Source: Escherichia phage vB_VIPECOTPH05A
Sequence record: PQ429079.1
Direction: 5' to 3' (one strand)
DNA length: 45,476 nucleotides
The translations under genes were made by a program, and so were the position numbers. Below the pieces are notes generated by a model. That model was not told the origin of the DNA, ran no database searches, and saw nothing but the letters and a program-made list of their open reading frames with translations. This document shows positions 1 to 45,476 of this stretch, piece by piece. Positions within the stretch are counted from its first letter, which is position 1, and the number at the start of each line of letters is the position of its first letter.

Positions 1-585
1 TCATTCCTCTACCTCACCCATGTTCGTTGTTACAATTTTACCTACAGGCTCCGCAACACTGAAAATAATCTCAGTCGGTGCCGTTTCTTCGGCGGATTCA
101 ACTGGTTTCTCTTTGCCAAGGCCAAGTTTCGCAGCGGCAAACGTAGCAGAGATACCTGCGGCCCCTGTCTCAGTGAAGTATGCCTCTTCCAATGCCTGTG
201 CTGTCTCATAGGCTTCGGCAAATGCGGGAATCTCACGCAGCCACAGCTTAATAATCGGGATAGTGACGCCGATGTGTAGGGCGAAGCGGGCCAGTGACGG
301 TGGCTTATCCTGAATCAGCGGGCGTTCGTCACCCTTAGACGTGGGCGCAAGTTCCCATGACGTGCGGTCGAAGAACTCGATTAACGCGTCGCAATAGTCC
401 GGGTCCCACAACGCGGCGGAATTACGGGACGATTGATAAAGGCTCTGTTTACCGCGCGGTCGTTTACGGCGACGGTTTGCGCTAACAGCTTCTTCATGTG
501 CAGCTTGCACCACCTCTGGCGATGGCTGCTTGAGTTTCAGCTTCATAGAATCCCCTTGCGTATGCGTCTGACCATCAGAGCGCAT
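1..585 (-). CDS. terS: terminase small subunit (putative)
   Basis: 194-aa ORF whose TGA stop sits at positions 1-3 and overlaps (ATGA) the start of the large-terminase ORF running off the other window edge; HTH-like segment PSLARFALHIGVTIPIIKLW; likely true start at internal Met (546..544) preceded by AAGGGGA RBS. Confidence 0.6.
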   Translation of the reverse strand: MRSDGQTHTQGDSMKLKLKQPSPEVVQAAHEEAVSANRRRKRPRGKQSLYQSSRNSAALWDPDYCDALIEFFDRTSWELAPTSKGDERPLIQDKPPSLARFALHIGVTIPIIKLWLREIPAFAEAYETAQALEEAYFTETGAAGISATFAAAKLGLGKEKPVESAEETAPTEIIFSVAEPVGKIVTTNMGEVEE

Positions 586-18980: not shown

Positions 18981-19175
18981 ATGAAACACGAATATGACCG
19001 CAAGCCAGCACGTGACATCGTACCTGGCGACATGATTTTCAACGTTAAGACCCGCCAGCCTGTTGCCGTTGATACTGTGTTCGTCGAGTCAAACGGTAAA
19101 CTGGTTATCGAAGATGTAACAGGCAACGTTACTGCGTTCGGGCGTAAAGAGCTGGTACTCTACGTTAAGGATTGA
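18981..19175 (+). CDS. hypothetical protein
   Basis: 64-aa ORF with RBS AAGGAATTGAG. Confidence 0.45.
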   Translation: MKHEYDRKPARDIVPGDMIFNVKTRQPVAVDTVFVESNGKLVIEDVTGNVTAFGRKELVLYVKD

Positions 19176-21643
19176 ACATGTCTAAATTTATCCGTCGAGG
19201 GTACCAGAAGCTCATGACTTCGTTCATGCTGCAACACCCGCGCTGTAATATCTGGGCCAGTATGGGTAGCGGCAAGTGCCTGAAACGCGGGACTGAAGTT
19301 ATTATGTTTGACGGTACGACCAAGAAAGTAGAAGACGTCATCGTCGGTGACGTGCTTATGGGGCCGGATTCGACGCCTAGAAATGTACTGTCTCTCGGTA
19401 GAGGCCGGGAGATGATGTACGAGGTTAAACCGCGAAAAGGAGAGTCGTATACGGTCAACGAAAGCCATATATTATCCCTGCGAACTACTACAGGGATCGC
19501 AAAAGGTTCATGGCCAGATAATACCGTTTTCGACATAAGCGTCCGCGACTGGCTTAAGTTGCCGAAATATGTAACCGGACCTAATGGGTATCTTAAGGGT
19601 TGGCGGGTACCTGTCGATTTTACAAGGAAAGAGCAGGACGAGGCTTTATTGCCTCCGTACCTTATGGGGTTATGGCTGGGTGACGGTACTTCGTCGTCGG
19701 GGGCCATAACATCAGGAGAGAACGAAAAGGAAATAAGGGCTTATCTTGAGTCGTACGCAGCACGTAATGGGATGCAAATACGAAAAGAAGGACTTACATG
19801 GAGTATATCTTACGGCAACACAGGTCATAAGAAGCACGGGTTTACGCACGCGCTGAAATCGGCGGGTGTCCTGAACAATAAGCATATACCGCATAGTTAC
19901 AAATGCGGCGACCGGCGACAGCGGTTAGAATTGCTGGCGGGGCTTCTGGATAGTGATGGTTACTGCGATTTGTCTAAAGCGGGTTTTGACTGGATTTCGG
20001 TAAGCGAGCGACTTGCTGATGATTTTTGTTATCTATGCCGTTCTCTTGGTTTTGCTGCTTACAAGAAGAAAACTCGTAAGCGTTGCGCAAACACTGATGT
20101 TTGGGGTGACTACTTCCGTGTGTCGGTATCTGGCGATTTTTCTGAGGTACCTTTCGTGCGAGGACGCCACCAGAATTTACCGAAGCGTAATATTAATAAG
20201 AACGTGCTTAACGTTGGGATAGAATCCATAACCCCGGTCGGCGTAGATGATTATTTTGGCTTCACTATCGACGGTGACAGTAGGTTTTTATTGGGGGACT
20301 TCACTGTCACGCACAATACAAGCTCAACGTTGTGGGTTCTCAACCGCCTGTTCCGTAATGGGCAACTTAATGACGACGACCGCGTGTTAATCCTCGCCCC
20401 GTTGCGTGTTGCGTCTGGCACGTGGCCTGCGGAACAGGCACGTTGGGGTTTCCCGTGCCTGCGTGTCGTAGATGCAACTGGTTCAGAGAAGCGCCGCATC
20501 GCGGCGCTGGAGTCGGACGCTAACGTGGTGTGCACTAACTACGAAGTTATCGAATGGCTTATTGACTACTACGGCAAAGACGACTGGCCTTTTACAGTTA
20601 TTGTCGCCGATGAAAGCACGAAGCTGAAATCGTTTCGCAGCCGTTCAGGTGGTAGCAAGCGTGCAAAGGCGCTCAGCAAAGTGGCGTTTGGTAAGGTTAA
20701 GCGTTTTATCAACCTGACCGGTACGCCGTCACCAAACGGCCTCAAAGACTTGTGGGGGCAGAACTGGTTTATAGACGCAGGCGAGCGACTTGGTTCTTCG
20801 TACACGGCATTCACTGACCGCTGGTTTAACTCGGTGCAGAAAGGGAAGTCCGCGATGGCGCGCGAGTATCACGCACGACCGGGTGCAGATAATGAAATTC
20901 ATCAGAAGATGAAGGATATCAGTCTCACTATCGATGCCGCAGAGTGGTTCGGTTGCGAAGCGCCGATTATCGTTCCTGTTGAAATAGACCTGCCGAAGAA
21001 AGCGCGTCAGGCGTACATCGATATGGAGGAGAAGTTATTTGCGGAACTCGAGAGCGGAGAAGTCGAAGCGGCTAATGCCGCGGCGAAGACGTCGAAGTGT
21101 TTGCAGATTGCATCCGGTGCCGTATATGTGTCAGGGCCAGATGGCGAAGCAACAAAAGACTGGGAGAAAGTGCACGACACGAAACTGGATGCGCTCGAGT
21201 CGATTGTTGAGGAGTTACAGGGTGCGCCGTTACTGGTAGCCTATCAGTTTAAGCACGAACTGGAGCGTATCCTTAAGCGATTCCCGCAAGCGCAGGCGTT
21301 TGCCAAAGGCGCTAAGGGTAATAAGCAGATGGAAGCGTGGAACCGTGGGGGAATCGAAATCTTATGCGTTCACCCCGCGTCAGCGGGCCATGGTTTGAAT
21401 TTACAGGACGGTGGACATCATCTGGTATTCATATCGCAAGGCTGGAACCTTGAGCACTATTTGCAGGTTGTCGAGCGCATAGGCCCCGTACGCCAGAAAC
21501 AGGCGGGGCATGAGCGCCCGGTGTTCCTTTATCACATCGTTGCTAAAGACACGCTGGATGAGGTTGTTGCCGCGCGTACAGACGAGAAGAAATCGGTCCA
21601 GGAAGAGTTGCTTAATTACATGAAGAGACGAGGTAAGAAATGA
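19172..21643 (+). CDS. SNF2-family helicase, intein-containing
   Basis: extein has Walker A GSGK|T (split by intein), DEST box VADESTKL, LTGTPSPNGLKDLW, HPASAGHGLNLQ, Q..G...R. Confidence 0.75.
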   Translation: MNMSKFIRRGYQKLMTSFMLQHPRCNIWASMGSGKCLKRGTEVIMFDGTTKKVEDVIVGDVLMGPDSTPRNVLSLGRGREMMYEVKPRKGESYTVNESHILSLRTTTGIAKGSWPDNTVFDISVRDWLKLPKYVTGPNGYLKGWRVPVDFTRKEQDEALLPPYLMGLWLGDGTSSSGAITSGENEKEIRAYLESYAARNGMQIRKEGLTWSISYGNTGHKKHGFTHALKSAGVLNNKHIPHSYKCGDRRQRLELLAGLLDSDGYCDLSKAGFDWISVSERLADDFCYLCRSLGFAAYKKKTRKRCANTDVWGDYFRVSVSGDFSEVPFVRGRHQNLPKRNINKNVLNVGIESITPVGVDDYFGFTIDGDSRFLLGDFTVTHNTSSTLWVLNRLFRNGQLNDDDRVLILAPLRVASGTWPAEQARWGFPCLRVVDATGSEKRRIAALESDANVVCTNYEVIEWLIDYYGKDDWPFTVIVADESTKLKSFRSRSGGSKRAKALSKVAFGKVKRFINLTGTPSPNGLKDLWGQNWFIDAGERLGSSYTAFTDRWFNSVQKGKSAMAREYHARPGADNEIHQKMKDISLTIDAAEWFGCEAPIIVPVEIDLPKKARQAYIDMEEKLFAELESGEVEAANAAAKTSKCLQIASGAVYVSGPDGEATKDWEKVHDTKLDALESIVEELQGAPLLVAYQFKHELERILKRFPQAQAFAKGAKGNKQMEAWNRGGIEILCVHPASAGHGLNLQDGGHHLVFISQGWNLEHYLQVVERIGPVRQKQAGHERPVFLYHIVAKDTLDEVVAARTDEKKSVQEELLNYMKRRGKK
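19277..20317 (+). mobile_element. intein with LAGLIDADG homing endonuclease domain (347 aa)
   Basis: begins Cys (CLKRGTEVIMFDG) right after GSGK, ends ...THN followed by Thr; two LAGLIDADG-like blocks LMGLWLGDGT and LLAGLLDSDGY. Confidence 0.75.
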
Positions 21644-28068: not shown

Positions 28069-30395
28069 TATTTAAACCCCGGCGCATTTCTTGTGGCCTT
28101 GCGGGCCTTGCTAATCTTACTGTTGCTGTTCTGCAAAGAGGCAGCCACCTGCTCTTCTATGATGATGCGCAAACGGCCTTCGTCATCCTGCTCGGTAGAT
28201 ACGTTGCCAATCTGACTCGATGTGTTATTTACAATGGTAACATTAGATGGGCCAGAAGAAGACCCATTTTGCCCCATAATTTCTTTCATCTGCTGCGCAG
28301 TTCGTACGCGCGATGCACCAGCAGGCATGATAACTTCTGGTTTACCGCGTTCGGCGATGGTGGAAGCCTGCCCCGCAGATAACTGACCGCCCTGTTCACG
28401 TGCGGACCTGATAGCGGAAACCTGCGCCATACCTGCCCCAACGGCAGCGGCAGCGGCTACAGGGGCCAGGAACGGGCCAACTACAGGGATAGCCGCCGTG
28501 GACTTGTATGCCTCAATAGCTGCGGTGTACGTGGCTATAGTGGCCTGTACGATAGCGAATGCCTTATACGCGCCAGAAGCCTCACCCAACGCAGACCCGA
28601 TGTTTGAGGCCATGTTGCCAAAGGCCGTTGCCGTTGCGTCGGCGCGCTTCGTAGCATACTGCTCATTGATAGCGTTAAGCGCCGCCTGATACTGTTCCTC
28701 GTTAATAAGCCCCTGTTCACGGTATTTATCTGCGACCGCCAGTTTCTGCTGTTCCTGGATGTCGAGAAGCTCAAGCTCAGCGGCGTTCTGGCCCATAATC
28801 TGAGCCATGAAGTCGTCGCCTTTCTGCTGCTTTTCCTGCTGCTCTTTTCTTTTCTTATCCAGTTCTTCCTGTCTGGCCTGCTCGGCTGTGAGCATAATTT
28901 GAGTTTTGGCGTTTTCATACTGCTGCTGGCTTATCGTTCCGGCGCGGTTGAACTCCTCCAGTTTCGCCAGTTTCTGTTCTTCTGCCGCCGTGATACGAGA
29001 AATTTCGTCTCCAGTAGTGCGGTCGACAGTAGCCAGGAAATCTTCGGCGGCTTTCTTCTGACGTTGCGCCGCCGTTTCTTCACGTTTGGCCTGCGCCGCC
29101 AGACGTTTCTCGTTCGATTTAGCCTCGCGGTCTGCCTTCGCTTTTTCGGTAGCGTCGATGCGGGCGATGTCTTGCTGCGCTTCCGCGTCACGGGCAGCGT
29201 TATACGCGGCTATCTGTTCTTTGGTGACAGCTTCACGTTTAGCGAACGCCTGCTTATCCAGTTCAGCTTGTGCCCGGATGCGCTCACGGTCGCTTAAGAT
29301 GGCAATTTGCTGATTCTTGACGATAGCTTCGTTCTGCTCCTGGAACCTCTGTGTGGTTGAGTTAACGTTACGTCCAAGATTCTTTTGGGCCTCTGCCGCC
29401 GCGTTTGCTGACTTCTCTGCGTTCTCCAGTGCCGTGGCGTTCTTATTGGCATTGTCAGTCAGGCGGATAAGTTCCGGGTTCAACTGTTTTGTGTTACCGA
29501 GCCAGTCGGTAAACACATCGGCGATACGACGGGCATTCTCGGCGGTTGGTTCTTTGTTAAACGCACTCTGCGCCGCTATCATCTCCAGCGCCTGGTCACG
29601 GTTAACTCCGAACTTACTGCTAAGCTCCGCGATATTCTGCGCCAGCATGTTGACGCCCACGATGTTACCTTCGTAAGTGCCGCCGAGTTTTTCTAACGTG
29701 TCGCCTACATCCGCACCCTTAGATACCAGTGCATCGTACTGACTAATAGCCGATGTCGTGGAGGCTTTCCACGTTTCCCACGATTCGGCATCTTCACGAA
29801 CAGCTTTAGCGGTTTGCTGTGCGATAAGGTCCGCGTTAGCCTTAGCCAGAGCAAGCTGAGTCTCCGCCGCCTCCCTACTGATTTGGGTAAGCTGGATAAG
29901 GCCGTCTGTCAGTTCGAGGGAGCCAGATGCCGTTTGCTGGAAAGTATCTTTTAACTGTTTCTGTGCGGCTTCGAGGTCTTTTGAACTGCCTTCTGCTTCG
30001 GTTAGCGATTTGTACAGTACCCCGCCAACAGCCGACGCTAGCGCGATTACCGCTCCAAGTACAGCACCCCCCGGTCCGAAGGCACCTGCAAGCTGGGAGC
30101 CTTGTTGCCCTATCGCTACGAATGCGGACGTGCCGGACTGCAACTGGACGACCATGTCCTGTACCTGGAAGCCCACCTGCCCGGCGGCGTTACGGAACTT
30201 GGCAAAACCGTCGGACGCGGCTTTAGAGGTAGCGGTGTTAACTTTATTAACATCCGGAGTTAGTTTGTTTACAGATGCGTCCGCCCGGTCTGCGGATGCC
30301 GCCATAGCGTCAAGCTGTTTGGCGGCGACGTCAGCCCCTTCAGTTTTTACTCTGGCGATTAGGGAAGCCGTATCAGCCATCTTCTCTGCCCTCAA
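28068..30395 (-). CDS. tail tape measure protein
   Basis: 775 aa, Ala/Gln/Glu-rich coiled-coil; C-terminal hydrophobic/Gly-rich region; downstream of G/GT chaperones. Confidence 0.8.
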   Translation of the reverse strand: MRAEKMADTASLIARVKTEGADVAAKQLDAMAASADRADASVNKLTPDVNKVNTATSKAASDGFAKFRNAAGQVGFQVQDMVVQLQSGTSAFVAIGQQGSQLAGAFGPGGAVLGAVIALASAVGGVLYKSLTEAEGSSKDLEAAQKQLKDTFQQTASGSLELTDGLIQLTQISREAAETQLALAKANADLIAQQTAKAVREDAESWETWKASTTSAISQYDALVSKGADVGDTLEKLGGTYEGNIVGVNMLAQNIAELSSKFGVNRDQALEMIAAQSAFNKEPTAENARRIADVFTDWLGNTKQLNPELIRLTDNANKNATALENAEKSANAAAEAQKNLGRNVNSTTQRFQEQNEAIVKNQQIAILSDRERIRAQAELDKQAFAKREAVTKEQIAAYNAARDAEAQQDIARIDATEKAKADREAKSNEKRLAAQAKREETAAQRQKKAAEDFLATVDRTTGDEISRITAAEEQKLAKLEEFNRAGTISQQQYENAKTQIMLTAEQARQEELDKKRKEQQEKQQKGDDFMAQIMGQNAAELELLDIQEQQKLAVADKYREQGLINEEQYQAALNAINEQYATKRADATATAFGNMASNIGSALGEASGAYKAFAIVQATIATYTAAIEAYKSTAAIPVVGPFLAPVAAAAAVGAGMAQVSAIRSAREQGGQLSAGQASTIAERGKPEVIMPAGASRVRTAQQMKEIMGQNGSSSGPSNVTIVNNTSSQIGNVSTEQDDEGRLRIIIEEQVAASLQNSNSKISKARKATRNAPGFK

Positions 30396-31151
30396 ATATT
30401 CCGTCTAAGCCCATGATAACCTCGGCTTCGAACAAACTTATGCCGTAACCGGCGACATCGCGAAACGCAGCCAAATCTTGCCATTTGAGCGCATCGCGCG
30501 GGATTATAACGATAGTATCATCTGTTTCGCGCTGTAGGAATTTAATGGCCCGGTATTTCTCGAACACGTCGATAAGAGAAACGGGGCATTCCGGCCCCGT
30601 CGCTTCTTTCATCTGCGGTTCTTTAATCACGCCCATTGCAATCAAAGCCGCCTGGTGTCCCGCCGCGATGTCGTCGAATTGCTTACGTTTGTGGCGGTCG
30701 ACAAAGCACCATTGCGCAAATTCATACAGCGCTTTTACTTTTCCGAGAGTTTCTCGCGGCTATCGGTGTGGTGCTTAACTACAGCCTCCGCCAACCCACT
30801 GTACTGGTCGAACAGGTTAGCCAGCGCCTCTTTACTGAACGGCTCATCGAAGGACCAACCGGTGACGATTTCCACGGCGAGCTGCTTGTTCAGGTCCATA
30901 ACCCGCCAGCCCTTCTCATCGTTATAGCGCGCCCAGTTATTCAATGCCTCACACTCTTTATCTAACGGCGCAAGTTCTTCCGTAAGGCGTCGAATTGCCG
31001 TTGTGTAGGCGCGGCCTGCTCGAACGCCCGCATCGCAATCGGGGCCAATGACCTGCAGCCATTCGCCAGAGTCTTTTCCGCTAGGCAGAAGGATTGGCAT
31101 TTTAGTACCGGCGGCGTGACGGTCGGCAAAATAGAAATCAGAAAGTTTCAT
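30373..31151 (-). CDS. tail assembly chaperone frameshift product (GT-like, via -1 frameshift near 30738)
   Basis: -1 frame is open from the G stop region through 30373; ORF-track 30373..30645 is its 3' part. Confidence 0.5.
30735..31151 (-). CDS. tail assembly chaperone (G-like)
   Basis: 138-aa ORF upstream of tape measure, ends ...SEK at slippery GAA-AAG-TAA. Confidence 0.6.
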   Translation of the reverse strand: MKLSDFYFADRHAAGTKMPILLPSGKDSGEWLQVIGPDCDAGVRAGRAYTTAIRRLTEELAPLDKECEALNNWARYNDEKGWRVMDLNKQLAVEIVTGWSFDEPFSKEALANLFDQYSGLAEAVVKHHTDSREKLSEK

Positions 31152-31258: not shown

Positions 31259-31287
31259 TTGCACACCCCAATATAATAGGGTACTAT
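31259..31287 (+). promoter_or_regulatory. sigma70-like promoter (TTGCAC-N17-TACTAT) for opposite-strand island
   Basis: drives plus-strand genes from 31316 inside the minus-strand tail operon. Confidence 0.5.
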
Positions 31288-31315: not shown

Positions 31316-31642
31316 ATGCGTAAATTAGTATTAGCTCTGGGGTTTATGTCTTTTGCTACTTTTGGGACTCCGTGTGAACAGGTATTTAGCGAATCTGTTC
31401 TTATGACTTCTGGTGTGCTTGAGAAAGCCGACCCTACTATTGTAAAGGCATTTAAGGACTCTACCGTTCGCGAGTGTGAAGCCGCCGTAGAGGTTGGTAA
31501 ATCTGGTCTACCTCCGCAAGCAGTAACATACACGGTGATACGTTCGGTAGAGAAAAACGGAGACGCGTTTTACAGCCTGCTGACAGCCACCCGCCTGCAA
31601 ATGGTAATGGCTGGATGGGCGATAGGCGCGGAAAGTAAATAG
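31316..31642 (+). CDS. secreted/periplasmic small protein (signal peptide)
   Basis: N-terminus MRKLVLALGFMSFATFG is signal-peptide-like; RBS GAGGAAA. Confidence 0.55.
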   Translation: MRKLVLALGFMSFATFGTPCEQVFSESVLMTSGVLEKADPTIVKAFKDSTVRECEAAVEVGKSGLPPQAVTYTVIRSVEKNGDAFYSLLTATRLQMVMAGWAIGAESK

Positions 31643-31708
31643 TCGCCTTTATTTAAAGGAACGCACTGTGGTTAAATAGGACAAATCCTAAACGCGAGGA
31701 AGTAAAGC

Positions 31709-32839
31709 ATGGCCCAGATTAAAATAACCGACGAACAGTTACAGGAAGAATTGAACGCCGGAACAAAGATTATCGACATATCCCGTAAATACGGCATCTC
31801 AGACCGAGTTATTCGTATCCGTAAAGCGAAGCTGGCGAAGAAAGGCGTAGGTCACGGTCGTGACGTTAGCCATCTTGTCCCGGACGGCTACAAGATTAAA
31901 GGCACGTCGTCACTTGTTGACGAGTTCGGCAACACTAAACTGCAATGGGTTAAGACTGATACCGACGCCGAACGTCAGGTTGAATTGATGAAAGCCGTAA
32001 TTGAAGGCATGAAGTCAGAGATTACGCCCGTTGCGCCTGTTAAAGCTGTTCGCGCCAAACGCGACGACAAGCTACTCAATCTTTACACGGTATCTGATTT
32101 CCATCTCGGTATGCTGGCATGGGCTGATGAGAGCGGAGACGACTGGGACATGAAGATTGCAGAAGACCTGTTCTCCCGATGGTTCGACGCGGCGTTCCAG
32201 AAAGCACCGGATGCAGGAACAGGAGTTATTAACCTTCTGGGCGACCTCGCTCACTTCGATAGTCTGGATGCGGTTACACCTGCAAGTGGTCATGTTCTTG
32301 ACGCGGACACGCGCTATCAGAAACTTGTACGCTACATGATTCGTATGGTCCGCCGTGTCGTTGATATGGCTCTGGTTAAACATAAAAATGTTCGCTTGCT
32401 TATCGTGCAAGGGAATCACGACGAAAGTGGCATGATTTGGTTGGCTGAGATGTTCAGCACGCTGTACGACAATGAGCCGCGTGTGTTCGTCGATACGTCG
32501 CCGGATGTTTACAAGATGGTGCAACACGGCAAAACGACGCTGTTCTTCCATCACGGACATAAAGCACGCTTCGACGCTATCGAACCGGTTATGATTGCCA
32601 AGTTCCGCAAAGCGTTCGGCGAGAGCGTTTATAGCTACGCCCACGTAGGCCACCTGCACCACCAGAAAATTGTAGAAAGCCGTAACATGATTGTTGAGCA
32701 ACACCGCACCCTGGCGGCTAAAGACGCCTACGCCTCTCGCGGCGGATGGATGTCAGGTCGTAGTGCAAATGTAATTACTTATAGCGCCGAATATGGTGAG
32801 GTCGCACGTTTAACTATTTCACCGGAGATGCTGGGATGA
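31709..32839 (+). CDS. HTH-fused calcineurin-like metallophosphoesterase
   Basis: N-terminal HTH (IIDISRKYGISDRVIRIRKAK); phosphoesterase motifs SDFHLG, GDLAHFD, QGNHDE, HHGH, GHLHH. Confidence 0.6.
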   Translation: MAQIKITDEQLQEELNAGTKIIDISRKYGISDRVIRIRKAKLAKKGVGHGRDVSHLVPDGYKIKGTSSLVDEFGNTKLQWVKTDTDAERQVELMKAVIEGMKSEITPVAPVKAVRAKRDDKLLNLYTVSDFHLGMLAWADESGDDWDMKIAEDLFSRWFDAAFQKAPDAGTGVINLLGDLAHFDSLDAVTPASGHVLDADTRYQKLVRYMIRMVRRVVDMALVKHKNVRLLIVQGNHDESGMIWLAEMFSTLYDNEPRVFVDTSPDVYKMVQHGKTTLFFHHGHKARFDAIEPVMIAKFRKAFGESVYSYAHVGHLHHQKIVESRNMIVEQHRTLAAKDAYASRGGWMSGRSANVITYSAEYGEVARLTISPEMLG

Positions 32840-33036
32840 AAGACATGTATGAATGCACCGAGGTAAGTCCGTATGCAGAGAAAAATGGGTTCGAAGTAGG
32901 TGCGGTGTACGAAGGAGTCACCCTAGAGAATGGCGATGTAAGAATGTATTCGCCTAAATATCGCAGCTTCTTTGAAATAGGCAACATTAACGAGTCAGGC
33001 ATAGCCAGATTTAAGAGAGTTAACAGTGACAAATAA
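32836..33036 (+). CDS. hypothetical protein
   Basis: 66-aa ORF, ATGA-coupled to the phosphoesterase gene. Confidence 0.4.
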   Translation: MKDMYECTEVSPYAEKNGFEVGAVYEGVTLENGDVRMYSPKYRSFFEIGNINESGIARFKRVNSDK

Positions 33037-33256
33037 ATACAACCGCACAATGACAAACACCTACGGCAGCACTATGACTGTAGACGTTTACGATGTACTA
33101 CGCGCATTCGATATACGCGACCCGGCGTTACAGCACGCATTGAAGAAGTTATTGTGCATGGGTCTTCGCGGCCACAAAGATACCGGGACAGACTTAGCGG
33201 AAGCAATTGAAAGTCTGGAGAAGTTACGGGAGTACAGGAGTAATATTGATGAGTAA
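33026..33256 (+). CDS. hypothetical protein
   Basis: 76-aa ORF. Confidence 0.4.
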   Translation: MTNKYNRTMTNTYGSTMTVDVYDVLRAFDIRDPALQHALKKLLCMGLRGHKDTGTDLAEAIESLEKLREYRSNIDE

Positions 33257-33422
33257 GAATGTAATGAAAACAATATACATAATCCGCGTATACGACAAAG
33301 AATGGGACGAGTGGAATGATATCTATGCTGTAAGTAGCCGGGAAGATGCGTTAGATGAATATTCACGGCTTCGGGATAAAGGAGAACTCGTTAACTTCTA
33401 CCCTATGCAATTGAAGGAATAA
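33249..33422 (+). CDS. hypothetical protein (57 aa)
   Basis: ORF 33207..33422; likely ATG at 33249 with AGGAG RBS. Confidence 0.4.
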   Translation: MSKNVMKTIYIIRVYDKEWDEWNDIYAVSSREDALDEYSRLRDKGELVNFYPMQLKE

Positions 33423-33452
33423 GAAAAAGGCCCCGTTAGGGGCCTTAGTTTT
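33422..33452. terminator. bidirectional rho-independent terminator
   Basis: stem AGGCCCC/GGGGCCT flanked by A5 and T-rich runs, between island and major tail gene. Confidence 0.7.
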
Positions 33453-40612: not shown

Positions 40613-41134
40613 ATGATTACTACAGTAATTACTTTCCCTGCGTATGTAGGGGCGAAAATATGCAGGGCTAAAAATGATGTGCGCTACTATTTGAACGCTT
40701 TTTACATAGACCCTGAAGGATTGATAGTGTCTACGGACGGTCATAGATTGTTCTGCGACAATGTGAAGACCAACGTTGAGAAAGGGACTCTCATAGACAT
40801 CAAAGGGAGAGAGCCTTCTAAATTTAACTACGCGGAGGTAAACCACGACAACGGCAGTGTATCTTTCTATGACGATAATCGTGCGCTTATATGTACACTT
40901 CCGGTAGATGTTGTAGAAGGAAACTTTCCTGACTGGAGACGCGTGGTGCACATCACACCGGGTGTTGTCGATAGTATAGGGTTCACTCTGCGCTATTTGG
41001 CAGACGCGTACAAGATTTCTAAGGCATACAAAAATGAAATTGCTCGTTTCGATTTCCAGGACCAAACCAGAGGATGCAAAATACAATTTTCAAACACGGC
41101 CTTTATGGTGTTAATGCCCGCGCGATTTAAATAA
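40613..41134 (+). CDS. hypothetical protein (opposite-strand moron)
   Basis: 173-aa ORF with AGGAG RBS, own promoter and terminator; possible PD-(D/E)XK-like pattern STDGHRL...IDIKGRE (weak). Confidence 0.55.
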   Translation: MITTVITFPAYVGAKICRAKNDVRYYLNAFYIDPEGLIVSTDGHRLFCDNVKTNVEKGTLIDIKGREPSKFNYAEVNHDNGSVSFYDDNRALICTLPVDVVEGNFPDWRRVVHITPGVVDSIGFTLRYLADAYKISKAYKNEIARFDFQDQTRGCKIQFSNTAFMVLMPARFK

Positions 41135-44229: not shown

Positions 44230-45476
44230 TTAAAGTGCGAAAGTTACCGGGATGTTGATTACTGGTTTAACCACCGGCATCTCATAAACTACAGGATAGC
44301 CGAGAGCATCCGCCATATGGTCAATGACGCCGTCTTTAGCAGGCTCTCCGTTATCATCATATGCCTGCTGCTCCAGCGTCTTCGCTATCTCAGGGCATAA
44401 GTGGTCGTTAACCCACAGCTTACCTTTTTCCAGCGCGGTATTCACGGCTAAAACACGGTCTTTAACCGGTGGGTTGGCGGATTTAGCGCGAACATCAAAA
44501 CCAGCCTGCTGTAGTAAGGCGATATCGGAGATTGATGCTGAGTTGGTTTTGCGGTTCTTGCCGCTGGCGTCCGGGTAAACGACGATGCGGTGGCCTTGCG
44601 ACTTCCACTTCTCGGTAATCACACGCACGGTATCTGGCGTATCGAACAGGCCCTTCAGTTCTGCTACCGCGTGCCAGCCGTCTTTACGTTGCACATACAC
44701 GGCGCTGGCGTTCTTCGTAACGTTGAAGTCCTGCCCGATGTACAGCGTGTCGCCCGGTTGGATTGTCTCTTTGCTGCGATGCTTACGTCGGTCGTAGGCG
44801 TAGTATACGCTGCCGGATGTCAGGTTAACGAACTCCCCATTCAGGTACGCGTTAATCAGTTGCGCTGGGTAAGTCTCGGTCAGCGAGCTAATGTAGTCAG
44901 GCGGCAGGAATCGCGCGTTCTCGTGGGTGGAAGCCTGCACCATTGAGTAACTCGGTGTCGGGTTCTCTTTGAACTTGGCGTAGACGAACTTGAACCCTTC
45001 CGGCGTCGTGGTGACGGAGATGTGGTTGGTTACACCAGGGATAACCAGACGCATACGGGCGACGATTTTGTTCCATGCCAGTTCAGCTTTTTCTCGGCTC
45101 AGTACGTCCAGTTCATCCACGACCGCGGCGGCGATTTTGAAACCCACAATCGAACCGGGGTTATCCATAGAACGACAGATAACCGTTCCGAGCACCGTCT
45201 TACCGCGAGTAACCACGACCTCTTTGTCTCCGGATTTAACCAGCACATCAAGGCCGAGCAGGTTAGCCGCTTCCTCGAATGTCGGGTAGAAGATGTCACG
45301 GATGGCGGGATAGGTGGGGCCGAAGTAGCCCAGGCGCGTACCGGGATGCTTGAGCATAAACGTAAGCAGGTCAAGGCAGCCGACAAACGTCTTGCCACTA
45401 CCGAAGCCGCCTACGTAGGCCTTGTATTTGTTGTCACAATTCAGGAACAGTGCCTGCGGCGCGGATAGCTGAATAC
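44230..45476 (-). CDS. terL: terminase large subunit (5' end at/through window edge)
   Basis: Walker A YVGGFGSGKTF near the window end; frame stays open to the edge and, if circular, joins an ATG at positions 4..2. Confidence 0.8.
   Translation of the reverse strand, partial: IQLSAPQALFLNCDNKYKAYVGGFGSGKTFVGCLDLLTFMLKHPGTRLGYFGPTYPAIRDIFYPTFEEAANLLGLDVLVKSGDKEVVVTRGKTVLGTVICRSMDNPGSIVGFKIAAAVVDELDVLSREKAELAWNKIVARMRLVIPGVTNHISVTTTPEGFKFVYAKFKENPTPSYSMVQASTHENARFLPPDYISSLTETYPAQLINAYLNGEFVNLTSGSVYYAYDRRKHRSKETIQPGDTLYIGQDFNVTKNASAVYVQRKDGWHAVAELKGLFDTPDTVRVITEKWKSQGHRIVVYPDASGKNRKTNSASISDIALLQQAGFDVRAKSANPPVKDRVLAVNTALEKGKLWVNDHLCPEIAKTLEQQAYDDNGEPAKDGVIDHMADALGYPVVYEMPVVKPVINIPVTFAL

Follow-up and report, generated by a model that had tools for sequence, protein, structure and literature searches.

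A widespread HTH-fused calcineurin-like metallophosphoesterase in the tail region of Escherichia phage vB_VIPECOTPH05A is probably a DNA nuclease

The gene and its locus

The window analysed here is a 45,476-nucleotide stretch of DNA from Escherichia phage vB_VIPECOTPH05A (sequence record PQ429079.1). Its plus strand carries, at positions 31709-32839, a complete open reading frame with an ATG start that encodes a helix-turn-helix (HTH)-metallophosphoesterase (MPE) of 376 aa, a homologue of T1 gp16, at exactly the position given in a preliminary description made from the sequence alone. A Shine-Dalgarno-like GAGGAAG (31696-31702, plus strand) can be read directly in the sequence 6 nt 5' of the ATG. 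The protein matches PHROG 704, annotated as "DNA repair exonuclease", with an E-value of 8.8e-165, residues 5-375 aligning to profile positions 3-389 of 390, and the dN/dS of the whole gene against its relatives is about 0.05 (0.04-0.08). Because of this full-length match and these dN/dS values, the gene is real far beyond chance, and the reading frame is confirmed as a genuine gene with an intact active site. Of the separate parts, the MPE domain gives a dN/dS of 0.01-0.035 and the HTH one of 0.08-0.26. A scan of the upstream region found no canonical sigma-70 promoter 5' of the gene, a lone TATAAT at 31272-31277 being devoid of a -35 element, and no convincing operator-like repeats.

The ORF map and the corresponding loci of relatives place the gene in an opposite-strand island (31316-33422, plus strand) within the minus-strand tail operon. 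The island encodes, in order, a 108-aa secreted protein, the MPE, and ORFs of 66, 76 and 71 aa. A terminator scan revealed a bidirectional intrinsic terminator, AAGGCCCCGTTAGGGGCCTT (33427-33446, both strands), with an 8-bp stem containing six GC pairs and T-runs on each strand, which is common to the island on the plus strand and the tail-tube gene on the minus strand. In every related Kagunavirus/Jerseyvirus locus examined, a comparison that included vB_VIPECOMC04 and templet, the MPE is the constant anchor and the flanking genes vary; the variable island genes include superinfection-immunity-type proteins. Neither the MPE nor the four other island proteins matched PADLOC at E<=0.01. A translationally coupled small downstream partner or inhibitor was considered and rejected, as the 66-aa ORF of the window is unrelated to Dhillonvirus gp12 and no recurring cluster was found.

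The phage is of the virulent type and lacks an integrase. Its MPE gene sits in the tail-module island and not beside the lysis cassette, 8.7-21.6 kb from the replication/recombination module. The phage encodes other nucleases as well (a phrog_69 exonuclease, an endonuclease and RusA), and their presence counts against assigning the MPE a nuclease function.

Domain architecture

AlphaFold2 (AF2) modelling of the protein resolves three parts. The N-terminal three-helix HTH (residues 8-44; 31730-31840, plus strand) comprises helices 8-16, 21-28 and 32-44, with a pLDDT of about 90. It is also recognizable in sequence comparisons of the family, whose profile matches GerE at E=0.03, and individual homologues match Sigma70_r4_2 (1.5e-9), GerE (2.4e-8), HTH_8 (2.6e-7) and HTH_1 (4e-6), though the HTH of the window protein alone reached no Pfam HTH model. 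The fused HTH is found in nearly all PHROG 704-family members, which are 370-420 aa long. An HTH could equally serve gene regulation, a point that counts against a nuclease.

The HTH is followed by a family-specific long β-hairpin (residues 61-85) and a helix (residues 87-104), together spanning 31889-32020 on the plus strand and supported by the AF2 model and by conservation. The hairpin residues G74 and W80 are conserved in at least 90% of homologues, and the sister family phrog_284 also covers the hairpin region, from residue 74. The remainder of the chain (residues 119-376; 32063-32836, plus strand) is predicted to form the four-layer α/β-sandwich of a metallophosphoesterase catalytic domain (two AF2 models, pLDDT 92.3 and 90.8), and Foldseek relates it to over 100 MPE structures with a probability of 1.00. 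A separate capping domain is absent from the AF2 models, in which the chain ends with the sandwich strands 353-370.

Active site and its conservation

Conservation of the active site was assessed in 117 diverse representative homologues of 31-50% identity. All five motifs lie on the plus strand. The metal ligands of motif I, D130-x-H132 (32096-32104), are invariant in 117/117 sequences. In motif II, G178-D179-L-A-H182 (32240-32254), G178 and D179 are invariant and H182 is kept in 112/117, and in motif III, G235-N236-H237-D238-E239 (32411-32425), N236 and H237 are invariant and D238 is conserved in at least 90%. Motif IV, H281-H282-G283-H284 within FHHGHK (32549-32560), has an invariant H282, with G283 and H284 conserved in at least 90%, and motif V, G314-H315-L-H317 (32648-32659), has G314 and H317 invariant and H315 in 112/117. 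The residues D130, H132, G178, D179, N236, H237, H282, G314 and H317 are thus invariant across all 117 homologues, and the metal-ligand residues are retained on alignment, invariant with the exception of H315. The invariance of the catalytic residues, taken with the lowest dN/dS being that of the MPE domain, speaks for catalysis as the function under selection. The motifs, the AF2 fold and the support for the HTH agree with each other, and they uphold the preliminary description of an HTH-fused calcineurin-like metallophosphoesterase bearing this motif series.

H182 occupies the position three residues after the metal-ligand Asp, as do His81 of the Pseudomonas putida MPE and the His of Mre11 "GDLFH", and in the profile alignment the GDLAH of motif II is paired with GDLLH of TmMre11. 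In the P. putida enzyme, His81 is needed for DNase activity but not for bis-pNPP hydrolysis, and His113 of the GNH motif, the counterpart of H237, is essential for DNA cleavage (PMC7826289). Both of these nuclease-specific His, which the P. putida enzyme can do without in generic diesterase activity, are kept in the family (H182 in 112/117 and H237 in 117/117), and H237 is the candidate general acid. The GNH histidine is also common in many non-nuclease MPEs, and its wide occurrence there counts against a nuclease.

Placement within the superfamily

The Pfam MPE models PF00149 and PF12850 score below their gathering cut-offs (21.6 against 27 bits and 18.9 against 21.5 bits, respectively), so that membership in the calcineurin-like superfamily rests on the motifs and the fold. 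The family is divergent as a whole, with 29/117 and 19/117 members matching Pfam Metallophos and Metallophos_2, respectively, at E<=0.01. Among solved MPE-superfamily structures, the catalytic-domain profile matched only Thermotoga maritima Mre11/SbcD (0.066) and the P. putida MPE (1.6) at E<=10, with alignments that span motif I and GDxLH. This similarity to Mre11/SbcD/MPE (E=0.07-1.6) is statistically non-significant, which likewise counts against a nuclease. Rv0805, CpdA and GpdQ are not matched by this profile, even with a cut-off as loose as E<=10, and PPP-type phosphatases are not among its matches.

In Foldseek searches, the best structural match of the catalytic domain alone is PolD DP1 (PDB identifier 5ihe; E=1.6e-8, TMq 0.56-0.57), and Mre11 is matched by the two models with E=1.6e-8 and 1e-7 (TMq 0.53). 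Rv0805 (E=4-5e-8, TMq 0.44-0.49) is about equal to the nucleases, and GpdQ has a TMq of 0.53; that these two resemble the domain almost as well as the nucleases do counts against a nuclease. None of the best 50 fold matches of either AF2 model is a PPP-type protein phosphatase. Since nucleases and small-molecule diesterases interleave in this ranking, the fold alone does not decide the substrate.

Family breadth and annotation

The protein is 99.5% identical to a "DNA repair exonuclease" of vB_VIPECOMC04 and 45% identical over 377 aa to gp16 (ST16) of coliphage T1. Full-length homologues occur in about 1,957 phage records, and the family spans 4,619 clusters at 50% identity. In Drexlerviridae the gene is persistent in 508/522 genomes (2026 paper, PMC13164509), and it is present throughout Guernseyvirinae and occurs in Dhillonvirus and in prophages. 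It is therefore no orphan, but a catalogued core gene that T1-like and Jersey-like phages share with many others. The preliminary description had regarded it as a phage moron, and one moron-like trait is indeed present, viz., a separate plus-strand unit inserted among minus-strand tail genes. Sporadic presence in close relatives and atypical composition are both missing (the GC content is 0.504 for the gene and 0.509 for the genome), and the constancy of the gene in the islands of relatives and its breadth in phage records and Drexlerviridae speak against the term.

The name "exonuclease" given to the family is an automated pipeline label only, so that the homology to a housekeeping phage nuclease, anticipated in the preliminary description as a possible outcome, stands as homology to a core gene whose nuclease activity is only annotated. 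The labels on relatives include "DNA polymerase II small subunit", which reflects the fold likeness to PolD DP1. Literature searches returned no functional study for any PHROG 704-family member, no functional work on Guernseyvirinae/Drexlerviridae phosphoesterases or on T1 host-DNA-degradation genes, and no escape mutants mapped to the MPE gene. A PUA-Cal-HAD preprint was set aside as a precedent, as its calcineurin-like enzyme is a bacterial effector.

Gene neighbourhoods

Neighbourhoods were surveyed in 35 viral and 43 bacterial (prophage) lineages, 78 in all, and the related-locus search was seeded with a 10-sequence alignment. In four independent viral lineages the gene at +1 of the MPE gene is in every case a HAD_PNKP 3'-phosphatase and that at +2 a dNMP kinase; the cassette-bearing lineages include Kagunaviruses with a 97-99% identical MPE. 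The same order of MPE, 3'-phosphatase and dNMP kinase has been reported in Drexlerviridae (PMC13164509). A dATP/dGTP pyrophosphohydrolase lies within four genes on either side in six viral lineages, and the dNMP kinase and pyrophosphohydrolase recur near the MPE in the independent set of 43 prophage lineages. The 3'-phosphatase/dNMP-kinase synteny is limited to about 4-6/35 viral lineages and is missing in the window phage, a restriction that counts against the reading preferred below. Further neighbours in some lineages are NinB/Orf, YbcO, a Ref-like nuclease, VRR-NUC, SSB and Dam, and the MPE gene frequently borders on genes for packaging, lysis or structural proteins.

The neighbour labelled "polynucleotide kinase" consists of a HAD phosphatase domain only (PF25109, about 1e-20), and neither the cassette nor the window phage contains a 5'-kinase domain or a ligase. 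A split "Pnkp" RNA-repair cassette of MPE plus kinase was rejected on these grounds. The 78 lineages revealed no obligate partner gene of the MPE and no recurrent large ATPase neighbour, and the complete genome of the 99.5%-identical relative contains no Rad50/SbcC ATPase.

Proposed function

Based on these observations, we suggest that the HTH-phosphoesterase is probably a DNA nuclease. DNA processing is favoured over signal degradation because of the DNA-binding domain, the nuclease-type His, the confinement of profile matches to nucleases, and the DNA- and nucleotide-metabolism neighbours. Of the two roles put forward in the preliminary description, DNA processing is thereby strengthened and degradation of a host nucleotide signal becomes the less favoured, despite the fold match to Rv0805 at E=4e-8. 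The specific reading that we prefer, albeit tentatively and at somewhat less than even confidence, is that of a stand-alone metal-dependent DNA phosphodiesterase of the Mre11/SbcD/PolD-DP1/MPE type, held on DNA by its HTH and engaged in the breakdown of host DNA for nucleotides. There is a precedent in A10ZJ24 Gp48, a stand-alone phage MPE of another kind, which breaks down the genomic DNA of the host both in vivo and in vitro (PMC12287305).

In such an enzyme, the HTH would bind duplex DNA, with the β-hairpin possibly assisting, and a binuclear metal centre made up of D130, H132, D179, N236, H282, H315 and H317 would activate a bridging water that attacks the backbone phosphodiester. H237 would protonate the leaving group, and H182 may position H237 or contact a neighbouring phosphate. 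In place of an ATPase partner, the fused N-terminal HTH would keep the nuclease on DNA. Encoded by a non-structural core gene whose transcription is separate from that of the late operon, the enzyme would most likely serve in DNA breakdown or processing, most plausibly of the host chromosome to supply deoxynucleotides. In many relatives, the Pnkp-type HAD 3'-phosphatase would clean 3'-phosphate ends or 3'-nucleotides and the dNMP kinase at +2 would recycle 5'-dNMPs; the window phage perhaps lost or never had these two and keeps the MPE alone. No means by which the phage would spare its own DNA is evident, and this counts against the preferred reading.

A broader generalization, which we consider rather less probable than the reading for this single protein, holds that the PHROG 704/T1 gp16 family is an unrecognised clade of partner-independent, HTH-guided MPE nucleases that dismantle the host chromosome and feed 3'-phosphatase/dNMP-kinase salvage. 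If true, siphoviruses of the T1-like, Jersey-like and Dhillon-like types, along with many marine and prophage ones, would use an HTH-guided MPE nuclease, the gene responsible for the classical degradation of host DNA by T1 could be identified, and blunted expression of host defences might follow as a side effect, as for mycobacteriophage Gp48.

Alternative explanations

The foremost alternative, to which we give roughly one chance in a handful, is a nuclease that acts on the phage's own DNA, i.e., a Mre11/SbcD-like end-processing or structure-specific enzyme tethered by its HTH without Rad50/SbcC and serving recombination-dependent replication, the processing of concatemers or branches ahead of packaging, or repair. 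The evidence from structure and sequence that favours a nuclease applies to it as it does to the preferred reading, and it also draws on the recombination neighbours in some lineages (NinB/Orf, YbcO, the Ref-like nuclease, VRR-NUC and SSB), the frequent bordering on packaging, lysis or structural genes, and the core-gene status in Drexlerviridae. The cluster-A mycobacteriophage MPE Bxb1 gp47, which is required for phage DNA replication, is likewise in its favour. Against it are the absence of Rad50/SbcC from the complete close relative and from the vicinity of the gene in 78 lineages, the absence of a capping domain, the distance of 8.7-21.6 kb from the replication/recombination module in the window, and the most reproducible neighbours being nucleotide-pool enzymes and not recombinases.

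Two further readings are improbable to a similar degree. According to one, the protein is a phosphodiesterase of cyclic mono-, di- or oligonucleotides that destroys the immune messengers of CBASS, Pycsar, Thoeris or type III CRISPR. Consistent with this are the presence of Rv0805, a class III cNMP phosphodiesterase, among the top fold matches, with GpdQ close, and a separately transcribed island whose other genes are variable and include superinfection-immunity-type proteins. But motif II is of the nuclease-like GDxxH type, whereas class III PDEs generally have GDLxxxG and are not known to carry the +3 His, and a fused DNA-binding HTH would have no obvious use on a small-molecule substrate. 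The failure of Rv0805, CpdA and GpdQ to match the profile at E<=10, the absence of a PADLOC match and the DNA/dNTP-metabolism genes as neighbours also disfavour it, and near-universal presence in phage families and prophages, whatever the host, suggests a housekeeping role.

The other is nucleic-acid end-healing, in which a 2',3'-cyclic phosphodiesterase or 3'-phosphatase would repair RNA or DNA cut by host ribotoxins or nucleases. The Pnkp-type HAD 3'-phosphatase, a recurrent immediate neighbour, lends itself to this reading, and 2',3'-cyclic phosphodiesterase activity is reported for the MPE domains of Clostridium thermocellum Pnkp (CthPnkp) and λ-Pase (PMC2190708). That neighbour is a HAD phosphatase domain only, with no 5'-kinase or ligase in the cassette or the window phage, two adjoining 3'-end phosphatases would be redundant, and the +2 gene encodes a deoxynucleotide kinase. 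Moreover, motif II reads GDLAHFD, and the λ-Pase/CthPnkp type is GDxVDRG.

Slightly less likely again is a DNA-binding regulator or architectural factor, of the repressor/activator or recombination-directionality type, with the MPE domain acting as a sensor or being secondary. The HTH does resemble the regulatory HTHs of Sigma70 region 4, GerE, Fis and LysR-type proteins, and phage MPEs can moonlight, Bxb1 gp47 being a non-enzymatic recombination directionality factor. Yet the catalytic residues are all invariant and dN/dS is lowest in the MPE domain (0.01-0.035), the window phage, being of the virulent type, lacks an integrase, and repeated operator-like sites are not seen upstream. Finally, a Ser/Thr/Tyr protein phosphatase that reprograms host or phage phosphoproteins, akin to the λ-PPase encoded by phage lambda and plausible insofar as the superfamily is the same and the binuclear site intact, is very improbable, given GDLAHFD and GNHDE in place of the PPP-family signatures GDxVDRG and GNHE, no PPP structure in the top 50 fold matches of either model or in the profile matches, and an HTH fusion and nucleic-acid-metabolism context that do not fit.

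Significance

Comprising some 4,600 clusters when grouped at 50% identity, the family is among the most widespread phage enzymes of predicted function, and it occurs in tractable model phages, including T1 (gp16) and Bas70-76, the Kagunaviruses of the BASEL collection. Should the protein be an HTH-tethered MPE nuclease that works alone, it would represent a new architecture for the Mre11/SbcD/MPE nuclease group and would explain deoxynucleotide supply or DNA processing in small virulent siphophages devoid of an SbcCD-type complex. Three mis-annotations would also be corrected, viz., "DNA polymerase II small subunit", "phosphatase" and the neighbour's "polynucleotide kinase". If signalling nucleotides are hydrolysed instead, the family would form a new class of anti-defence enzyme, and an extremely common one.

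Comparison with known systems

The class III cNMP PDEs (Rv0805/CpdA) and GpdQ are nearly as close in fold as the nucleases and have no DNA-binding domain. Archaeal PolD DP1, a 3'-5' proofreading exonuclease (PDB identifier 5ihe), resembles the catalytic domain in fold at 10-12% identity, but has an OB-fold and works within the PolD heterodimer, whereas the phage has a family-A-type DNA polymerase encoded elsewhere. Mre11/SbcD proteins (T. maritima Mre11, PDB identifiers 4o43/2q8u; T4 gp47) have in common with it the binuclear MPE fold, the GDxxH of motif II and the GNHD of motif III, at 11-14% identity and with a best profile E-value of 0.066 over motifs I-II only; in place of their capping domain and Rad50/SbcC partner, the window protein has an N-terminal HTH and hairpin. 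T4 gp46/47 takes part in breaking host DNA down to nucleotides.

The P. putida MPE (PdeM; PDB identifier 6nvo), an ssDNA endonuclease, is monomeric with no capping domain and no partner, and its His81 and His113 correspond to H182 and H237. The window protein stays far below the cut-off of NCBIfam TIGR04123, the model of the ligase-associated DNA damage response endonuclease (11 bits against 150, E=0.2), and PdeM itself lacks an HTH and belongs to a Lhr-Core/ligase repair operon. The β-sandwich topology of the P. putida MPE differs from that of Mre11 (PMC7826289). The cluster-A mycobacteriophage MPEs A10ZJ24 Gp48 and Bxb1 gp47 are likewise stand-alone phage MPEs and provide a functional precedent, Gp48 showing DNase activity on host DNA together with a counter-defence phenotype (PMC12287305). 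They are proteins of about 255 aa from temperate actinophages, with motif I at residue 10 and no HTH or hairpin, and orthology with them was rejected, as Bxb1 gp47 matches PHROG 221 and not 704 or 284, and an hhalign comparison of the two families gave a probability of 2.9%.

The closest system is T1 gp16 and the "DNA repair exonuclease" proteins of Drexlerviridae, Guernseyvirinae and Dhillonvirus. The window gene stands apart in its tail-module island and has no 3'-phosphatase/dNMP kinase downstream, but its product differs in no way in kind from these proteins and belongs to the same family, with the same full-length architecture.

Genomic setting of the metallophosphoesterase gene

The window is from a Kagunavirus-type (Guernseyvirinae) siphophage of E. 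coli, with ~91% nucleotide identity to phages hz69 and fFiEco02; its calcineurin-like metallophosphoesterase (MPE) is 99.5% identical to a vB_VIPECOMC04 gene product. Head and tail genes occupy the minus strand, whereas the plus strand carries, at ~8.7-21.6 kb, a T7-like module for replication and recombination (helicase-primase, exonuclease, Gp2.5-like SSB, DNA polymerase and helicase). Belonging to neither, the MPE gene (31709-32839, plus strand) sits in an island of 2.1 kb on the plus strand (31316-33422), with the tail-assembly chaperone gene on one side and the tail-tube gene on the other. The island closes at a strong bidirectional terminator (33427-33446, both strands), which it has in common with the convergent tail-tube gene; this is a perfect 8-bp GC-rich hairpin, AAGGCCCCGTTAGGGGCCTT, with T-runs on either strand. 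Consequently, the downstream tail genes must be read antisense through the island or re-initiated. No canonical sigma-70 promoter was found.

Directly 5' of the MPE gene, 31316-31642 (plus strand) encodes a 108-aa protein with a signal-peptide-like N-terminal segment (phrog_14165, function unknown), which has no Pfam or PADLOC match; in many relatives this slot holds a ~60-aa 'superinfection immunity' membrane protein (phrog_1039). Three small ORFs of 66, 76 and 71 aa follow on the 3' side (32836-33422, plus strand). The start of the 66-aa ORF overlaps the MPE stop codon (ATGA); its product has no PHROGs or Pfam homologue and no relation to Dhillonvirus gp12, which is coupled in a similar way. 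For the 76-aa protein, matches are confined to the C-terminal part of longer families, phrog_2452 among them. No island protein matched the PADLOC defence models.

A RusA-like Holliday-junction resolvase gene (40613-41134, plus strand) within the minus-strand head-morphogenesis module is a second small opposite-strand DNA-metabolism insertion among structural genes. The tail-assembly chaperone (30373-31151, minus strand) is encoded by two overlapping ORFs of 138 and 90 aa, one matching the N-terminal and the other the C-terminal half of a single PHROG (15027), as is usual for the programmed frameshift that precedes the tape-measure gene. The 823-aa SNF2-type helicase (19172-21643, plus strand; SNF2-rel 385-534, Helicase_C 671-771) is interrupted near its N-terminus by an intein that contains a homing endonuclease (Hom_end_hint 36-110, E=2e-21; LAGLIDADG_3 250-307), and its orthologue in the close relative vB_VIPECOMC04 has only 475 aa. 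A 375-aa ORF (44230-45357, minus strand), 'hypothetical' (phrog_38319) in a relative, comprises the N and C domains of the terminase large subunit (Terminase_6N 9e-14, Terminase_6C 3e-11). The terminase region appears rearranged or interrupted, given a further 'terminase' fragment at the window start (1-585, minus strand) and a homing endonuclease adjoining this gene in the same relative.

A widespread core gene

The MPE matches PHROG 704 ('DNA repair exonuclease') end to end (E=8.8e-165), an already catalogued family with annotations in GenBank. Using tblastn, 2,043 phage records were retrieved, 1,957 of them full-length, including phages of Escherichia, Klebsiella (Webervirus), Salmonella (Jerseyvirus), Vibrio, Campylobacter, Flavobacterium and Rhodobacter, and N4-like roseophages. 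An exhaustive HMMER search, with sequences grouped at 50% identity, yielded 4,619 clusters; 1,144 have E<1e-30, and across the set lengths are almost always 370-420 aa. Coliphage T1 gp16 (ST16) is a full-length homologue (45% identical), and prophages of many Proteobacteria carry the family, with integrase and endolysin nearby in 43 lineages. Among Drexlerviridae it is reported as a persistent gene, in 508 of 522 genomes (PMC13164509). In Kagunavirus and Jerseyvirus loci the MPE is constant within the island while the genes on either side vary. Its GC content (0.504) matches that of the window (0.509). Against relatives, dN/dS is 0.04-0.08 overall, with 0.01-0.035 in the MPE domain, 0.02-0.17 in the hairpin-helix and 0.08-0.26 in the HTH; these ratios are approximate as dS nears saturation. 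Thus, the gene is a core gene and not a moron, as the preliminary description had labelled it.

In 8 of 35 viral lineages, HNH homing endonucleases lie directly beside the MPE gene (for example, loci L011, 42028-42510; L007, 5171-5671; L021 and L089-L091), and in some phages the protein is split into ~100-aa and ~300-aa pieces (BFVD entries, Salmonella phage 36, Roseobacter phage RDJL Phi 1). Together, these suggest that the conserved MPE gene is a homing target.

Domain architecture

The ORF begins with ATG, 6 nt after a GAGGAAG ribosome-binding site, and encodes 376 aa with the motifs D130-F-H132, G178-D179, G235-N-H-D-E239, H282 and G314-H-L-H317. In an alignment with 116 homologues, each standing for a different 50%-identity cluster and 31-50% identical to the window protein, D130, H132, G178, D179, N236, H237, H282, G314 and H317 are invariant among the 117 sequences; conservation is 90% or more at H315, H182, D184, T190, L197, D198, R202, D238, R258 and further positions. 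With this alignment, AlphaFold2 modelled the full-length protein (pLDDT 92.3, pTM 0.80) as three short N-terminal helices (residues 8-16, 21-28, 32-44) and a linker, a long β-hairpin (61-85), a helix (87-104) and an α/β sandwich (119-376). The helical N-terminus is a helix-turn-helix (HTH): the family profile aligned to GerE (E=0.03), and many individual members match Sigma70_r4_2 (1.5e-9), GerE (2.4e-8), Fis-type HTH_8 (2.6e-7) or LysR HTH_1 (4e-6). Both Pfam MPE models score the window protein slightly under their gathering cut-offs, and the family is therefore divergent. The full-length and catalytic-domain models (the latter with pLDDT 90.8, pTM 0.90) each match more than 100 solved MPE structures at Foldseek probability 1.00. 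The HTH and MPE motif series first described from sequence at this locus are hence borne out in coordinates, strand, motifs and fold.

No solved structure was similar at the sequence level in a single-protein search. At E<=10, the catalytic-domain profile found only two PDB sequences, both of nucleases and both non-significant: P. putida MPE (E=1.6) and T. maritima Mre11/SbcD (E=0.066), the alignment with the latter spanning motif I and GDxLH. Protein phosphatases, cNMP phosphodiesterases, purple acid phosphatases, LpxH and YfcE were absent; these sequence matches only indicate a direction. The fold matches of the catalytic-domain model rank from the PolD DP1 proofreading exonuclease (E 1.6e-8, TMq 0.56-0.57) through Rv0805 (E 4e-8, TMq 0.44-0.49) and T. 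maritima Mre11 (E 1e-7, TMq 0.53) to GpdQ (TMq 0.53), with purple acid phosphatases, YfcE, LpxH and Vps29 ranked lower; the full-length model gave the same picture. The modelled fold indicates a phosphodiesterase-type MPE but does not separate nucleases from small-molecule diesterases.

Gene neighbourhood

Across 91 viral loci (35 lineages at <70% MPE identity) and 79 bacterial-genome loci (43 lineages), no neighbour is universal. No Rad50/SbcC-like ATPase is encoded near the MPE in these loci, or anywhere in one complete close relative. A neighbour annotated 'polynucleotide kinase' has only the HAD 3'-phosphatase domain of Pnkp (PF25109, ~1e-20), without the kinase domain, and the next gene encodes a dNMP kinase. 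Whenever present, they are at +1 and +2 of the MPE. The four lineages concerned cover MPE identities of 41-100%: Kagunavirus (7 of 17 loci), an environmental group, Yersinia phage vB_YenM_22 and Webervirus. In T1, both genes lie elsewhere in the genome. An independent study reports the same gene order in Drexlerviridae (PMC13164509). Six further lineages, Vibrio and N4-like phages among them, have a dATP/dGTP pyrophosphohydrolase no more than about four genes away, and among prophages the dNMP kinase recurs in five lineages and the pyrophosphohydrolase in three. HAD-only genes (loci L013, 9128-9616; L004, 6172-6663; L008, 5220-5678; T1 ST64) are widely labelled as kinases in genomes of Kagunavirus, Webervirus, Yersinia phage and T1-like types, apparently through the propagation of a mis-annotation. 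The window phage has neither this phosphatase nor the dNMP kinase. Dam, VRR-NUC, NinB/Orf, YbcO, a Ref-like nuclease, SSB, ThyX and dCMP deaminase are further neighbours of the MPE gene.

Proposed function and comparison with known systems

On the most economical reading, the MPE would be a DNA phosphodiesterase (nuclease) that works alone, anchored to DNA through its HTH, and may act in DNA breakdown or processing coupled to deoxynucleotide supply. We infer its substrate, polarity, target and biological role; we found no phenotype in the literature for any family member. That it cuts DNA, in salvage or in phage-DNA processing, is moderately probable; salvage of host DNA and nucleotides, suggested by the dNMP kinase and pyrophosphohydrolase neighbours, we hold tentatively. 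Processing of phage DNA ends or recombination is rather unlikely, as in the window the gene stands outside the recombination module. Of the two functions first suggested, DNA processing is better supported than degradation of a nucleotide signal; the fold would suit a cyclic-nucleotide phosphodiesterase, a role that seems improbable with none among the profile matches. Equally doubtful is an end-healing enzyme, as the HAD 3'-phosphatase adjacent in some relatives might suggest. A regulator, to which the HTH could point, has little likelihood beside the invariant metal-site motifs. A protein phosphatase is very improbable, with no PPP-type enzyme in the top 50 fold matches of the catalytic-domain model.

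This very large family belongs to the core genes of several phage groups and has members in model phages. A precedent for a phage MPE acting on DNA is the HTH-less Gp48 of mycobacteriophage A10ZJ24, whose degradation of host DNA, seen both in vivo and in vitro, blunts the defences of the host (PMC12287305); it belongs to another family (PHROG 221, hhalign probability 2.9%) and is ruled out as an orthologue. In P. putida MPE, DNA cleavage requires two histidines that bis-pNPP hydrolysis does not need, namely His81, three residues past Asp78 (the metal ligand of motif II), and His113 of GNH (PMC7826289); they correspond to H182 (112/117) and H237 (117/117) of the window protein, whose motif-II 'GDxxH' aligns with GDLLH of Mre11. 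We propose that in mode of working it most resembles Mre11/SbcD, DP1 or P. putida MPE, but it belongs to none of these groups: the window protein has no significant sequence similarity to them, lacks a capping domain and a Rad50/SbcC partner, and scores 11 bits on the PdeM model against a cut-off of 150. It belongs to the MPE superfamily and to PHROG 704 and, given these differences, is best seen as a distinct variant among MPE phosphodiesterases, fused to an HTH and without a partner.
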